13,541 nt of DNA from a virus (Duplodnaviria > Heunggongvirae > Uroviricota > Caudoviricetes), in the IMG/VR virus record IMGVR_UViG_3300029498_000044; one strand, 5' to 3'. Positions 1 through 9,543 of this stretch are shown piece after piece; positions within the stretch are counted from its first letter, which is position 1; every line of letters begins with the position of its first letter. The notes below the pieces were generated by a model, which saw only the letters and a program-made list of their open reading frames with translations, was not told where the DNA came from and did no database searches. Made by a program: the position numbers and the translations under genes.

Positions 1-120
1 AGTCTAAAAACTAGTATTAAGACTATCACTTATTTAAGTGATATTGGTTGTCTGGAGATTCAGGGGGCCAGTCTATATCTTTCATACTTACTCTCAACTA
101 TCAAAAGTACAGGATTTATT

Positions 121-645
121 ATGAAGTTATGGCCTGTGTTGACTGGCATTGCACTCTCTTTCACTCTTATAGCATGTAAGGCCCCGACACCACCTAAAGG
201 TGTGCAGCCGATTACAAATTTTGACGCCAACCGCTACCTCGGAAAATGGTATGAAATAGCTCGCCTCGAGAACTGGTTCGAACGTGGTCTGGAACAGGTC
301 AGCGCTACTTATGAAAAACGGAACGACGGAGGGATTCGCGTACTTAACCGTGGATACGATCCAACGAAAAACAAATGGAGCGAGAGCGAAGGTAAAGCAT
401 ACTTTACTGGAGATACTAAAACTGCAGCGTTGAAAGTTTCGTTTTTTGGCCCCTTCTATGGTGGCTATAATGTAATCAAACTGGATGATGAGTATAAGTA
501 TGCTCTTGTCAGTGGTCCGAACAGAGAATACCTATGGATTCTGGCAAGGACCCAAACTATTCCAGATAATGTAAAAGCAGACTATGTGCGTACCGCTCAA
601 AAGTTGGGATTCAATGTCAATGAACTATTATGGGTTAAACAATAA
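121..645 (+). CDS. blc: Bacterial lipocalin (Blc-like) outer-membrane lipoprotein
   Basis: 174 aa. Signal peptide ending in lipobox LIAC. Lipocalin motifs (NFDANRYLGKWYEIAR, KVSFFGPFYGGYNVI, YLWILAR) align with E. coli Blc from memory, clearly divergent. AGGA about 8 nt upstream of ATG. Confidence 0.85.
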   Translation: MKLWPVLTGIALSFTLIACKAPTPPKGVQPITNFDANRYLGKWYEIARLENWFERGLEQVSATYEKRNDGGIRVLNRGYDPTKNKWSESEGKAYFTGDTKTAALKVSFFGPFYGGYNVIKLDDEYKYALVSGPNREYLWILARTQTIPDNVKADYVRTAQKLGFNVNELLWVKQ

Positions 646-663
646 AATCCCCACCCGAAATGA

Positions 664-690
664 TACTTATTAGAAAAAAACCAGCCTTTG
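664..690 (-). terminator. Rho-independent terminator (tR'-like) downstream of Q
   Basis: Stem CCAGCC/GGCTGG (671-676/685-690) with 8-nt loop. On the minus strand it is followed by a 7-U run (664-670). Confidence 0.55.
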
Positions 691-749
691 GGGAGGCTGG
701 CTAAATCAGGAAACAAGCTGTTATATGATAATAACTACGTTGCGATTCC

Positions 750-778
750 AACATTTAAAATGTTAGACTAATGAAAAT
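750..778 (-). promoter_or_regulatory. Candidate late promoter (pR'-like) just downstream of Q
   Basis: Minus-strand TTGCTG (773-778), 17-nt spacer, TAACAT (750-755). Position matches lambdoid pR' and precedes the terminator at 664-690. Predicted short transcript of roughly 80 nt. Confidence 0.35.
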
Positions 779-800
779 CAGACAGCAACTTTTCCTTTAA

Positions 801-1178
801 TTATTTCGAACAATCAGCATCCATCTCCAATCGGAGATCCAACACCATCAGCATGCCCTCCACTACGCCCTCAGCTTTCTGGAGCATCCTGCCAACCCAA
901 CAATCAGATCGCCCATGCTTACGTGCAAGCGCCATAAAAGTCATGCCGCCGACATAATAGTCCACCAATAAATCATGTAAATCGCTGTTGTTTTTTTTCA
1001 GGCGAGCCATACATTCACAAATGATCATCGCGTCATCGTCACAGCATTGCGGACGAGATCTTACTTTTGAAGGAATTAATCCCTTAAAACCGGCGGCAAT
1101 GGACGACCAGGTCACATCTTCATGATTATTAGCCGCCCATGCCCCCCAACGCTCAAGAACCATCTGAATATCACGCAT
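801..1178 (-). CDS. quuD: Late-gene antitermination protein Q (QuuD-type)
   Basis: Translation [24 protein letters not shown]...[10 protein letters not shown]...LRLEMD matches my recollection of DLP12 QuuD. Start moved from the track's TTG (1193) to ATG at 1178 with GGAG 7 nt upstream. Confidence 0.85.
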
Positions 1179-1195
1179 CAACTTACTCCACAAAA

Positions 1196-2245
1196 TTAGG
1201 CCAGCACACCAATTGCCAGCGCGCGATCGATAAATCGAAAAATCAGCTCCAGTTGGGAGCCATACTTCTCTTCAAATGCCACGGTATCCGTATGCAACTC
1301 GTCGTGATGCTTTCTGCACAAAGGCAACACAAAGAGATCATGTGCTTTGGTTCCCATTCCGCCCTGCCCGTGACCAATCAGATGATGCGGATCGTCGGCT
1401 GGCATACCGCAGCAAGCACACGGCTGTGTCTTAACCCAGCGTGTGTATTTCTCCTTAACCCAACGGTGACGTTTAGGCAGCTTCATGAAAGATTCCGGAG
1501 ACTCTGGATCAACGGTGATGCTTACCACCGTCTTTTCCTGTGATGGGTTTTGTTGCTGGTGGGCGTGAGGCAACGGTGCAAGATTTTTTGTGCGCTGTTT
1601 CAATATGCTGGTGGCGGTCTGCTCTCCCGGTACGATGTCGCTTTCGCGGTACACCGAGCAGTTTTTTTCCGCTGGTAATCCCAGCGAGCGACGTAATACC
1701 ACTTCCGGTAGCGCGTCCGCCACCTGATTGCGGACCGCCCACCAGGATAATTCAGCCAGAGATAATTCACGCTCCTGCGTACCGCTTATTGCGTGACCGA
1801 TGACGTCAATCATCCATGCTGACAGGTTTTGATGAGCAAGTTGCTCGAGTGATTCGGATGTCTGGTCACGCAGCTGGTTGTCGCAGTGCCAGCACAACAC
1901 CATTGCGCCGGTACCATAACGGTGAATGACGGTTTCACTGTGGTGATAATCGCCGTGTGGCCACTGGCAGGATTTAACATGGCGCAGTAACCAATCAGAC
2001 AATGCGCCAGCGCCACCAGCAGCACGAATCACTCGTTCGTCGCTGAAAAATGGCAGTAATGATTTATCCTCCGCCAGCGGCTGGCGAACGGCAGGAACGA
2101 CCCCGGACGGCAGATTACGCATGCTTTTCGGTTCCGGCTCCACCAGTACCCGGGTATTGTGGAATACCGGCATGGATTCACGGCCCGGCTTAACGATCAC
2201 CAGCCCGAGTTCCGGTACCAGAACAGGTCGAAGTAATACCCGCAC
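1196..2245 (-). CDS. ydfU: DUF968 / YdfU-like prophage protein with C-terminal Cys/His-rich (HNH-like) motif
   Basis: 349 aa, same length and position (adjacent to Q) as Qin YdfU. C-terminal motif CACCG...HH...CRKHH. GTG start with GGAGG SD, overlapping the stop of the upstream gene. Confidence 0.8.
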
Positions 2246-2246
2246 G

Positions 2247-2519
2247 TTACCTCCAGATGCGTTGCTGGAATGTGCGGGACGGACGCGGTGGGCGTTCGGA
2301 ATAAGGGAGTCTGACGTAGATTATCCAGTGACGATAATCGAGGGTGAGGGCTTTCCTAAACTCATATCCACGTCTGCGGTAGTTATGAATCAGCCATTCG
2401 GCCTGTTCTTCAGTACAGGGATCGTGCTGATACCAGTCATATTTGAATGCGTGAGAACGCCACCCGTGCCTGCTGGCAAAGGCAGAATCAGAATTGCGAA
2501 ATTTGAAATTATGCGCCAT
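2247..2519 (-). CDS. Hypothetical prophage protein (90 aa)
   Basis: ORF with GGAG SD 6 nt before ATG at 2519. Its stop abuts the ydfU start. No motif recognised. Confidence 0.5.
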   Translation of the reverse strand: MAHNFKFRNSDSAFASRHGWRSHAFKYDWYQHDPCTEEQAEWLIHNYRRRGYEFRKALTLDYRHWIIYVRLPYSERPPRPSRTFQQRIWR

Positions 2520-2578
2520 TGTCATCTCCAATGGCGCTGCAGGTTGCCAGTTGTTCAGGCTGGCTCACGTATTATAAC

Positions 2579-2752
2579 TTATTCCCGAACTACCTTGAAA
2601 CCGAGTCTTTCCAAGTATTCAATGAATGCCTCAACAGATAACACTACATGATCATCAGGAATTAACGCTGTGTAGGTAATACCCCCATTCTCAACGCGCA
2701 CAGCATAGAGGCCATCTTCACTAAAAATTTCACGTAATTCTTCGATTTTCAT
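2579..2752 (-). CDS. Hypothetical small protein (57 aa)
   Basis: ATG at 2752 preceded by GGAAGGA 8 nt upstream. Track ORF 2579..2800 trimmed to this start. Confidence 0.45.
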   Translation of the reverse strand: MKIEELREIFSEDGLYAVRVENGGITYTALIPDDHVVLSVEAFIEYLERLGFKVVRE

Positions 2753-2884
2753 CAACAGAATCCTTCCAGATAAATAGCACTCCCCCTGTTCGGGGTCCAT
2801 CCCTCTTCTCCCTGCGCGCTACTTAAGTATTTTTGATTCTATTCTGGCACCGTCCAAAACTTCAAACACGTTGAAAATAAAAAC

Positions 2885-2905
2885 AAAAAACCCGCCGAAG
2901 CGGGT
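2885..2905 (-). terminator. Rho-independent terminator ending the two-gene cassette
   Basis: Minus strand: stem ACCCGC/GCGGGT with TTCG loop, then a T-run. Lies immediately after the stop at 2910. Shares an identical 20-nt core with 4721-4740. Confidence 0.65.
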
Positions 2906-2909
2906 ATAC

Positions 2910-4016
2910 TCAAACAATCTGGAAAATATTTCTTGGATTTGTAATAGGTCTGTTGATGGAGAACAACTCACGAATTAAATCTTGGCTCAAGCCAGTTTTC
3001 ATAAGAATTCTTAGCCAGGTTGCATCATCCAGCATTTCAATCGCCTCGGCCAGCATGCCGGGTTCTTCAGGGCGCAAAAGTTCATCACCAGGTTCAACTC
3101 TCGTATACCCTCTGGAATTAAGATGCATATAGCCAGTTCTTGCCTGTTCCTGGGTCAATAAGCCTAATGCGCTGGCTCGATAAATACACATTTTAAGGCT
3201 GATTTTCCATCTAAGTTTAAATTCAACCAGAGCATTCCAGTCGAATTGCTTACCTCGTATTCGTGGAAATTCTTTAATGAAAGATAACCTGGGAACTAAT
3301 AAGGCGCTCGAAAAGTGATCGGCTTGTGATTCCGTAAGTTTATCACCTGTCGTTATGCCCTCATGCATTACTAAATGCCCTAATTCATGACCTAAATCAG
3401 AGCGAAATCTACATATGCTTTTTTTAACATTGTTCCTGATGATAACAGGCCTGTTATTGTGAACAGTAAAAGCATCAACACGATCATCGACTCCCGTAAC
3501 ATGCGCAACGATTACCCCTAAACTCTCCGCCAATTTAACCATTGATGATATAGGGCCAAGACCTAAATTCCAGGCACGGCGACAATCTTCTGCCACTCGC
3601 TCAATATCATTCGGAGTAAGTAATTCAGCCCCTGGGTGCTCCGGTATGTTAACGTCAGGAAATTCGATTTCACCTTCAACAGCAGAAATTATAATATTAA
3701 GAATCTCAGCCCTGGCCAATACACTATTAGTCAGCGTTTGAGTCCTGGACTTCTTACTCCGAAAATGGCAGACATCACTTTCCAGAGCGTATTTTCGTTC
3801 AGTAAAAAGAAAACTGGACTTAATCATAAGCGCTGAAGATATTAACTCAAGACATTGCTCCGATGGCCTGCACCCCTTCTCCAGTTTGCTAACGAATTGC
3901 TTTGTCTTGCCAATTTTTTCGGCTAACTCTTCACAAGAAAGCCCAACAGCCATTCTCGCTAGTTTGAGCTTATCACCCCGATACTCAGTGAAGTTATTCA
4001 CCTGATGTTCCATCAC
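2910..4016 (-). CDS. HTH_XRE DNA-binding domain fused to ImmA/IrrE-family (COG2856) Zn-metallopeptidase
   Basis: N-terminal XRE helix-turn-helix (about residues 12-68, LARMAVGLSCEELAEKIGKTKQFVSKLEKG). HEXXH motif H210-E-L-G-H214 at nt 3375-3389. First codon is GTG at 4016 or ATG at 4013. Overlaps the upstream gene by about 20 nt. Confidence 0.85.
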   Translation of the reverse strand: MMEHQVNNFTEYRGDKLKLARMAVGLSCEELAEKIGKTKQFVSKLEKGCRPSEQCLELISSALMIKSSFLFTERKYALESDVCHFRSKKSRTQTLTNSVLARAEILNIIISAVEGEIEFPDVNIPEHPGAELLTPNDIERVAEDCRRAWNLGLGPISSMVKLAESLGVIVAHVTGVDDRVDAFTVHNNRPVIIRNNVKKSICRFRSDLGHELGHLVMHEGITTGDKLTESQADHFSSALLVPRLSFIKEFPRIRGKQFDWNALVEFKLRWKISLKMCIYRASALGLLTQEQARTGYMHLNSRGYTRVEPGDELLRPEEPGMLAEAIEMLDDATWLRILMKTGLSQDLIRELFSINRPITNPRNIFQIV

Positions 4017-4644
4017 TGCTCACATCCAAATCTTTATCCTTCGTACGCCGACGAAGAGGCACCTTATTAATCTCCGCTTCGTCAGGGAGTGTGTTATAAT
4101 CAAGAGGCATAAGCGGCATCGATGCTGTAGATTGATGAGAAACTATACTAATCTGAGCACCATAAGTATTAAATCCAACAAGAGCTACCTCCCAACGAGG
4201 CAGTGTGGACTCTAATTCACCATCGCCCTCTTCGGATAAAAAAGGCTCAGCTATGACTCGCCATGTAATATCTTGCTCAGCCTCAACATCACCAAACAAT
4301 GAGAGCTGCTCATACTCTACTTTATTTCGACGCAGACGATGTTTCTTTTTGGGGTTATTAATGCAATCTTTGGTAAATTGTAGCGGAACTTTATTTAAAG
4401 CAACTACATAGTCCAACCCCTTGGAAATCATCTCAAGGCCAGGAATTGCATCTTCATTTTGAATAAGATGATTTCTGACCCAATCATAAGCCCTTACACC
4501 TTCAGACCAGTTGCTGTCTAATGCGTGCTTATGATAGTACAGCTGCTCAAGTACGTTAGCGATCTCCGCCAACAAGTGGCGAACATAGTTTTCAGCAAGA
4601 TAAGGTTGAAATTCCCAACAAGGAGCTAACTGATTTTCATTCAT
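3994..4644 (-). CDS. Hypothetical 216-aa protein, operon partner of the HTH-peptidase; candidate effector or toxin
   Basis: Long ORF with no motif I recognise. Contains a basic patch KKKHRLRRNK. Its 3' end overlaps the downstream peptidase gene. Weak SD. Confidence 0.7.
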   Translation of the reverse strand: MNENQLAPCWEFQPYLAENYVRHLLAEIANVLEQLYYHKHALDSNWSEGVRAYDWVRNHLIQNEDAIPGLEMISKGLDYVVALNKVPLQFTKDCINNPKKKHRLRRNKVEYEQLSLFGDVEAEQDITWRVIAEPFLSEEGDGELESTLPRWEVALVGFNTYGAQISIVSHQSTASMPLMPLDYNTLPDEAEINKVPLRRRTKDKDLDVSSDGTSGE

Positions 4645-4809: not shown

Positions 4810-4965
4810 TTACTCCTCAGGTTCGTAAGCTGTGAAGACAGCGACCTCCGTCTGGCCGGTTCGGATTCGTACCTCGCAGAGGTCTTTCCTCGTTACCAGT
4901 GCCGTCACAATGACGGTTAAACAGATGACGATCAGGGCGATTAGCATCGCCTTTTGCTGCTTCAT
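4810..4965 (-). CDS. hokD: Hok-family type I toxin (small membrane peptide, 51 aa)
   Basis: MKQQKAMLIALIVICLTVIVTALVTRKDLCEVRIRTGQTEVAVFTAYEPEE is a canonical Hok/Gef sequence and matches my memory of HokD/RelF. Track ORF 4810..5022 carries a 19-codon upstream extension at the mok-like position. Confidence 0.85.
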   Translation of the reverse strand: MKQQKAMLIALIVICLTVIVTALVTRKDLCEVRIRTGQTEVAVFTAYEPEE

Positions 4966-5169
4966 AGCCTGCTTCTCCTTGCCTTTCGGCACGTAAGAGG
5001 CTAACCTACGTGTGTAGAGCATAGATATGGCCTCAGATTAATGTTAAGCGTCTTGCCGGACGCGTAATGTTAACTGGGGCTTTTCTCTATCTGCCTTTTG
5101 GTGTTCATGCCTGAGACAGATAGCCTCAAGCACCCGCTGCAATTCTACTTAACTCTCCTTTTCCCGCAA
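4966..5169 (-). promoter_or_regulatory. hok promoter and long 5' leader with mok-like start and Sok target
   Basis: Minus-strand TTGCGG (5164-5169), 16-nt spacer, TAGAAT (5142-5147). Leader contains GCTTGAGGCTATCTG...CAGATAG complementary boxes. In-frame upstream ATG at 5022. Confidence 0.5.
5014..5090 (+). ncRNA. Candidate Sok-like antisense RNA (approximate coordinates)
   Basis: Plus-strand TTGCCT (4979-4984), 17-nt spacer, TAACCT (5002-5007) would start a transcript antisense to the mok start and SD. The 3' end is not resolved. Confidence 0.3.
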
Positions 5170-8772: not shown

Positions 8773-9543
8773 TCACTTTTCCGATACAACACGGCGGGAA
8801 GAATCAGTAATCTGTCGAACAATATCCCGGTGCTTGTTCACCTCCCGCAGCGCGGCGCAGACTCGCTCCCACTTCTGAACATCACTTTTCGCCCTGCGCA
8901 GCGCCAGGTTTGCCCTGCGAAGGGACGGAAAAATCAGCTCATCTGCTTGCGTTTCGGTAAACGATGGCAACGGCTGCACAATGTCCGCCACAGTTTCTGT
9001 TTTAATTTCTTCCTGTGTTGCGGCTTCCCGGACTGGTAACGCAGCACCTGCTGGCTGAGGAAAGGCCTTACCATCACTTTCCGTTACCAGCGCGGCTTTC
9101 GGCTCTGCTGGTAAATTATCGCCCGGCATGCAGTAACGAAATTTACCGTTCTGATTAACGCGTGCCAGCCGCCCCGTTGCGGTTACCACCGCCAGCGTGG
9201 AGGCAACCTTGCGAGTACTGACGCCGAACTTACCCGCCAGTTCCTCACACGTTTTAGCACCATCCTGACCGATAAACTCAATCATCATGTCTGCGGTAAC
9301 TTTTTGTTCGACCTCCCCGGTCAGCATATCCTGTGCTTCAGATTTTACTGGCCGCTCTTCGGTTACCCGGGATTCACCTTCGCCAGCCAGAAACCAGGTG
9401 TGACCAGTTTTATCAACGACGCCATTTCTTTTGAGTTCCCACAGCTCGTTGAGAACCTCTTCACGACTGATATCAAGTCGCGCGGCCAGTTCTACCGATG
9501 TGGCTTTTCCCATTGCTTTCAGTGCGTCAAATACGGTTTCCAT
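8773..9543 (-). CDS. Prophage protein with two tandem winged-helix-like modules (256 aa)
   Basis: Two repeats of a wHTH-like pattern ([28 protein letters not shown] and [28 protein letters not shown]). ATG at 9543 with GGAGG SD. Track start at 9561 is TTG. Confidence 0.65.

Follow-up and report, generated by a model that had tools for sequence, protein, structure and literature searches.

A Blc-subfamily lipocalin carried as phage cargo between Q and the lysis genes, with an IS2 insertion close upstream

The window, by which we mean the whole stretch of 13,541 nucleotides of tailed-phage DNA that was analysed (IMG/VR virus record IMGVR_UViG_3300029498_000044), carries a lipocalin gene near its left edge, between the end of an insertion sequence and a Q antiterminator gene. 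The features of this region are listed below, with positions counted from the first letter of the window.

1-75, - strand: left (transposase-proximal) end of IS2, terminal 75 bp, 100% identical to the W3110 IS2 end
83-88, + strand: CATACT, putative -10 hexamer of a promoter belonging to the lipocalin itself, with 7 bp between it and the IS2 junction, located by alignment
111-114, + strand: Shine-Dalgarno-like AGGA, 6 nt before the lipocalin ATG, read from the sequence
121-645, + strand: lipocalin gene, encoding a Blc-subfamily lipoprotein of 174 amino acids (ORF call, ATG start)
121-177, + strand: signal peptide and lipobox of the lipocalin gene, with the Cys19 codon at 175-177
672-702, - strand: tR'-like intrinsic terminator with a 9-bp stem (702..679) followed by U7, from a terminator scan
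801-1193, - strand: Q antiterminator gene (Pfam Phage_antitermQ, 8e-51)
1196-2245, - strand: gene for a YdfU-like DUF968 protein with an HNH-like C-terminus, directly upstream of Q

The preliminary description of this DNA had reported a complete lipoprotein lipocalin gene, and the 174-amino-acid reading frame, its lipobox and its matches to Pfam, NCBIfam and the solved structures all agreed with that description. Pfam Lipocalin_2 matched residues 35-174 (E = 7.5e-43, 146 bits against a cut-off of 24), and the NCBIfam model NF007786, 'outer membrane lipoprotein Blc', scored 312.6 bits against a cut-off of 267 (residues 1-174 of 176 profile positions). Membership of the Blc subfamily was defined as a full-length NF007786 / PF08212 match above the curated cut-off, and by this definition the phage lipocalin is a member. 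The sequences of the solved E. coli Blc structures aligned with it gap-free (E = 8e-67), with G41-K-W43 (SCR1) and LWILAR (SCR3, including the C-terminal Arg) placed opposite GTW and LWILSR, and PHROG phrog_2809 matched it end to end. The gene in the window is 100% identical at the DNA level to that of E. coli CFSAN061763, whose product is WP_000780584.1.

Direct reading of the N-terminus, MKLWPVLTGIALSFTLIAC, gave the lipobox L-I-A-C with Cys19, and in the translation the +2 residue after Cys19 is Lys, not Asp. A residue other than Asp at +2 predicts outer-membrane sorting of lipoproteins; because its +2 residue is Lys, the phage lipocalin is predicted to be sorted to the outer membrane. The phage protein shares 102 of 174 residues (59%) with the Blc translated from the K-12 genome, so that the gene is, as had been noticed from the letters alone, clearly diverged from the chromosomal E. 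coli copy. Residue 84 of the phage protein is Asn, at a position where E. coli Blc has Gly84; G84E of E. coli Blc is a reported IBD-associated variant (PMC7026729).

The lipocalin (+) and Q (-) lie on opposite strands and are therefore convergent, as previously described. RefSeq homologues of Q, annotated as 'antiterminator Q family protein', start at the ATG equivalent to position 1178. The terminator between the two genes lies on the Q/late strand and fits a tR'-like element: its predicted fold has a free energy of -14.9 kcal/mol (z = -3.7), and 0/200 shuffled sequences were equally stable. On the + strand this hairpin lacks a following T-run, so it makes no obvious terminator for transcription of the lipocalin; terminator scanning and folding found no + strand terminator after the lipocalin. 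The consensus scan called no pR'-like promoter at its threshold, and the candidate picked by eye at 788-760 (-) is weak, with a 7/12 match. Of the pR'/tR'-like elements claimed earlier, the tR' stood, on its stem, U7 and z-score, and for the pR' there is this weak match.

Because it is antisense to the late operon, the lipocalin cannot use pR'. Ahead of the gene, the consensus sigma-70 scan called no promoter on the + strand. Alignment with homologues pointed to a putative promoter of its own, as CATACT at 83-88 aligned with TACACT upstream of the Klebsiella, Cedecea and Scandinavium homologues, and the K-12 blc gene has CTACACT, similar in sequence and in distance from the start, in its upstream region. 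The AGGA before the ATG was kept in all homologues aligned.

The IS2 at the left edge of the window was overlooked in the preliminary description. The W3110 reference element, to which the terminal 75 bp are identical, is annotated by RefSeq as 'IS3-like element IS2 family transposase'. The element extends past the left edge of the window, its transposase reading leftwards, away from the junction. Phage homology begins at base 76, which sets the IS2/phage junction at 75|76, 45 bp ahead of the lipocalin ATG and 7 bp ahead of the putative -10. The upstream flank within the window therefore consists of insertion sequence and is neither lysis genes nor host chromosome.

This exact junction was absent from the 5,426 complete E. 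coli genomes searched. In those genomes IS2 was found at no fewer than 3 other points in the ~165 bp ahead of the lipocalin, each time in the same orientation. In strain 4FM the IS2 lies 5 bp further upstream, again in the same orientation and flanked by a TCATC duplication, and in other genomes it lies ~80-117 bp further from the lipocalin than in the window. The insertions are independent events, which makes the region a mild IS2 target. In the window, IS2 replaces all DNA upstream of the putative -10 and breaks the late operon after tR', ahead of the genes that follow; it may alter the expression of both the lipocalin and the late operon.

The segment from 76 to 1195, comprising the lipocalin and Q, showed 94-97% DNA identity to 12 isolated lambda-like coliphages. 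In two of these, 1H12 and IdasGreatGrand, the gene order is Q(-), lipocalin(+), a YbgA-family/RudS protein of 319 amino acids (-), an HTH protein of 243 amino acids (-), holin, endolysin and an Rz-like spanin. The lysis genes are 2-3 kb beyond the lipocalin in the isolated phages, and the E. coli prophages inspected have the same Q-lipocalin-to-lysis layout. The gene had earlier been assigned to the slot between Q and the lysis genes, and both the isolated phages and the prophages place it there. Lysis genes had been expected on the upstream flank, and they are indeed present in the uninterrupted relatives; in the window the flank is the IS2 end, and rudS, the araC-type gene and the lysis genes are not visible.

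Among the 5,426 complete E. coli genomes, the lipocalin gene (121-645) was covered to at least 80% in 1,042 (about 19%), and a query of window positions 1-1200 (IS2 end, lipocalin and Q) was covered to at least 80% at one place in 1,013. Nearly all of the lipocalin matches (1,222 of 1,224) were at chromosomal sites. The Q-lipocalin module was always in a prophage context, and the flanking genes and chromosomal coordinates differed between the prophages that carry it. BL21-derived Rosetta2(DE3) has the same lipocalin protein in a Qin-like cryptic prophage. Phages with a Q about 85% identical (434, mEp332, ev243 and others) matched only the Q part of the query and have no lipocalin. The gene thus lies between conserved modules and is patchily present among related phages, found in the 12 phages and missing from the Q-related ones, as is expected of a moron.

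That the gene is phage-borne had been put forward from its divergence. The conclusion stands, and it is proven by genomic context, that is, by the presence of the module in the isolated coliphages and in E. coli prophages with a shared layout; divergence alone is a weak argument. Two further groups of matches were set aside. Salmonella 'phage' records matching the lipocalin were of limited relevance, being large chromosomal contigs or a record annotated blc1. In a Morganella phage, a copy with 50% identity has the lysis genes on one side and terminase on the other, and is a separate acquisition.

The lipocalin and the RudS homologue are carried by the same 12 phage records, and a segment spanning araC, rudS and the lipocalin (HTH-YbgA-lipocalin) was covered to at least 80% in 890 of the 5,426 genomes. 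The cargo is usually a cassette of three genes, lipocalin(+), rudS(-) and an araC-type regulator(-), and not a lone gene. In the phage 1H12 record the two lipocalin neighbours, both outside the window, are the following.

3467-4426 of the 1H12 record, - strand: RudS_vir
2417-3148 of the 1H12 record, - strand: AraC-type regulator

RudS_vir is 1H12 gp66, an experimentally tested tRNA 4-thiouridine desulfidase; overexpression of RudS genes in E. coli lowered tRNA s4U 4.7- to 26-fold, E. coli itself has no RudS, and RudS genes are often in light-responsive operons (PMC11417400). In some prophages, such as those of CFSAN061763 and Rosetta2(DE3), rudS is frameshifted or truncated. The 243-amino-acid HTH protein was considered as the MerR/MlrA-like regulator of the source locus described below and was rejected in that role, as it is of the AraC type (HTH_18/HTH_AraC).

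The closest non-phage homologues of the lipocalin, with 72-80% protein identity, were found in Cedecea, Scandinavium, Pantoea, Serratia, Klebsiella and Lelliottia. In a neighbour-joining tree, drawn without support values, the phage copies formed their own clade among these homologues, and E. coli Blc sat on a separate, longer branch. Five homologue loci were inspected, and in 4/5 the lipocalin is divergent from a MerR/MlrA-like gene which heads a cluster of SnoaL, SDR, amine-oxidase, DUF1365, CFA-synthase-like and DUF2878 genes; the exception is the Lelliottia homologue (72%), which has an unrelated context. One MerR-lipocalin locus encodes a DUF523-DUF1722 RudS homologue that is 73% identical to the YbgA-family protein of the phages. 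The MerR-lipocalin intergenic region, of ~110 bp, aligned with the region upstream of the phage lipocalin, and the alignment conserved a block AATATA(C/G)TA(C/G)GAA and a -10-like hexamer. Judged from these comparisons, the locus of Klebsiella, Cedecea and Scandinavium is the likely source of the phage lipocalin and of its upstream DNA. As the phage regulator is of the AraC type and not the MerR type, regulation of the phage gene may differ from that of the source locus.

In IS-free copies, the rudS-lipocalin intergenic region holds a 16/18 palindrome, TTCCTAATATAGTAGGAA (~8950-8975 in record L003 and ~4523-4548 in the 1H12 record, L002). This palindrome aligns with the conserved block of the MerR-lipocalin intergenic region in Klebsiella, Cedecea and Scandinavium, and it may be an operator. 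In the window, IS2 has displaced it from the lipocalin.

Selection on the gene was assessed among the phage and prophage copies, for which dN/dS was 0.06-0.23, with synonymous changes dominating; this range therefore indicates purifying selection on the lipocalin protein. The reading frame was intact in the 1,042 genomes. Within the window, G+C differed little between the lipocalin (43.8%), Q (47.1%) and the window as a whole (47.8%). The G+C of the phage lipocalin, 44%, is far from that of its closest chromosomal relatives (56-63%) and from that of K-12 blc (53%), and synonymous sites between the phage gene and those closest relatives are saturated. The low G+C and the saturated sites indicate a long residence in phage genomes without decay.

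Considering the phage context, the family assignment and the selection data together, we think it probable that the phage-borne gene encodes a functional Blc-subfamily protein and is a moron of lambda-like phages that forms part of a captured cassette, has its own promoter and protects the envelope lipids of the lysogen. Stationary-phase (RpoS-dependent) expression and the binding of lysophospholipids or fatty acids would be expected of a Blc-subfamily protein, and the -10-like hexamer at 83-88 is what the window shows that bears on this. The lipocalin would be processed at Cys19 and anchored in the outer membrane, where, as E. coli Blc does, it would be expected to bind a hydrophobic ligand in the calyx of its beta-barrel. 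The ligand of E. coli Blc is itself disputed, having been described as lysophospholipids or as heme and other tetrapyrroles (PMC8177097; PMC7026729). Lying past Q and the tR'-like terminator, this accessory cargo gene runs antisense to the late operon and would be expressed in the lysogen from its own promoter; once Q acts, late transcription running antisense through the lipocalin would be expected to oppose that expression. The cassette and its upstream DNA would stem from the chromosome of other Enterobacterales, captured from a locus where the lipocalin faces the MerR/MlrA-like regulator at the head of the SnoaL-to-DUF2878 cluster. The most likely benefit would be that envelope lipids of the lysogen are protected against stationary-phase or photo-oxidative stress; for a benefit to the lysogen as such, the purifying selection and the 19% prevalence are indirect evidence.

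A narrower proposal is that the lipocalin, RudS and the AraC-type regulator together form a near-UV/photo-oxidative stress module, lifted from a MerR/LitR-like regulated locus of other Enterobacterales; we regard this as a speculative possibility and would not expect it to hold. MerR regulators of the LitR type govern, in Pseudomonas, gene clusters that are switched on by light and include photolyase, SDR, FAD-oxidoreductase and UfaM genes (PMC9758184). The enterobacterial MerR/MlrA-like cluster resembles these, and by analogy it may be induced by light or photo-oxidation. In our literature searches, no paper connected a Blc-type lipocalin with a LitR regulon, or a lipocalin with photolyase/CFA/MerR clusters. 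If the proposal were true, E. coli, which lacks a RudS of its own, would gain tRNA s4U de-modification from the module, the outer-membrane lipocalin would sequester photo-oxidised lipids or tetrapyrrole photosensitisers, and the module would amount to lysogenic conversion for light tolerance outside the gut.

Protection of the lysogen has to be weighed against readings in which the gene does nothing for the host. The lipocalin might be a neutral passenger that hitch-hikes with rudS or the Q module and contributes nothing, here also silenced by IS2. It is dispensable for phage growth, given the related phages that lack it; its partner rudS is broken in some prophages; and IS2 has inserted upstream of it repeatedly, in the window removing all DNA before the putative -10. 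A passenger of this kind would not be expected to keep its frame intact across so many genomes under purifying selection, or to reside in phages long enough for its G+C and synonymous sites to shift as they have, and we find this reading improbable. The gene could instead encode an outer-membrane lipoprotein for superinfection exclusion or receptor masking, like Cor or Llp, that serves the prophage and not the physiology of the host. It is a predicted outer-membrane lipoprotein of temperate phages, found among other envelope morons, with a Bor-like gene nearby in phage 1H12, and membrane proteins, including bor and sie, predominate among lambda morons (Mathieu et al., PMC6969025). Against such a role, the protein scores above the curated cut-off of the model for a housekeeping subfamily, its upstream DNA is still homologous to that of chromosomal homologues, its companion is a tRNA-repair enzyme rather than exclusion genes, and PADLOC gave no match for it. 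We consider an exclusion function quite improbable.

The remaining candidate, the host's own blc or a chromosomal paralogue lying beside prophage remnants, was ruled out, and we give it next to no weight. The one point in its favour is that the lipocalin is a bona fide Blc subfamily member. The blc gene of K-12 lies between ampC and gdx (sugE), at a different locus, and its product is the one only 59% identical to the phage protein. The phage gene, moreover, is packaged in the genomes of isolated virions between Q and the lysis genes, and the prophages that carry it vary in their flanking genes and chromosomal coordinates. Nor is the DNA upstream of it host chromosome, as uninterrupted relatives have phage DNA there.

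A phage-borne lipocalin in the slot between Q and the lysis genes is already catalogued and published as a moron. According to Mathieu et al. (2020), more than 50% of 19 gut lambda phages carry blc as a moron (PMC6969025), and public annotation names the gene 'lipocalin family protein' (RefSeq) or 'Lipocalin Blc' (RAST), with phrog_2809 listed as function unknown. The additions made here are modest: the IS2 insertion, the linkage of the lipocalin with RudS and the AraC-type regulator, and a likely source locus whose upstream DNA it shares. Literature searches found no paper making the IS2, RudS/AraC or source-locus links for the phage lipocalin. On these counts, about one in five sequenced E. 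coli, Rosetta2(DE3) included, has a second, phage-delivered Blc-type lipocalin, and the RudS linkage and likely source locus give a concrete, testable hypothesis on its role. The IS2 matters for the copy in the window because it separates the lipocalin from the DNA that natively lies upstream and breaks up the late operon of the prophage.

Compared with E. coli Blc (b4149; PDB 1QWD, 2ACO, 3MBT), the phage lipocalin is alike in family, length, lipobox, score above the NF007786 cut-off and a -10-like element upstream, and unlike in its sequence (59% identity), its prophage locus between Q and the lysis genes, its G+C (44% against 53%) and its Asn84. The blc moron of gut lambda-like phages (1H12, Lambda_2E9, ev087 and others; phrog_2809) is the same gene in the same slot, with 96-97% protein identity; the window copy differs in having IS2 45 bp upstream and an early region from a different mosaic. 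With the chromosomal MerR-divergent lipocalins of Klebsiella, Cedecea and Scandinavium the phage copy shares 72-80% protein identity and homologous upstream DNA, and one of these loci encodes the RudS that is 73% identical to the phage RudS; unlike them, it has no MerR neighbour, an AraC-type regulator two genes away and a much lower G+C.

The Q-to-S slot of lambdoid phages is known to hold cargo such as stx, nmpC, cspB/cspF and tRNAs. The lipocalin sits there too, after Q/pR'/tR' and before the holin, when set beside lambdoid maps and the related prophage of strain NCTC86, in which tRNAs and a methyltransferase occupy the slot. It differs from stx, which points the same way as the late operon and relies on read-through by Q; the lipocalin is antisense and would be expected to use its own promoter.

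The remainder of the window belongs to a different mosaic. Prophages of ABU 83972 and related strains match it with ~99% identity from position 1203 rightwards, and Qin-like prophages, that of CFSAN061763 among them, match the Q-lipocalin module with 100% identity. A mosaic joint lies at ~1196-1203, at the boundary between Q and the DUF968 gene. The prophage of NCTC86 has the early region in common with the window but a different Q module, the one with the tRNAs and methyltransferase. None of the 5,426 complete E. coli genomes matched the full window; the best whole-window match covered 92% of it and had a different Q module. Other features recorded in this part are given below.

2910-4016, - strand: RmrA, with HTH and M78 peptidase (PADLOC, 6e-105)
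3994-4644, - strand: RmrT (PADLOC, 5e-25)
4810-5022, - strand: Hok-family type I toxin ORF, of which the last 51 codons are HokD-like

RmrA and RmrT make up an anti-phage defence pair of the RosmerTA type in the nin region (2910-4644, - strand). The counterpart of the 4810-5022 ORF in the related NCTC86 prophage is annotated hokD.
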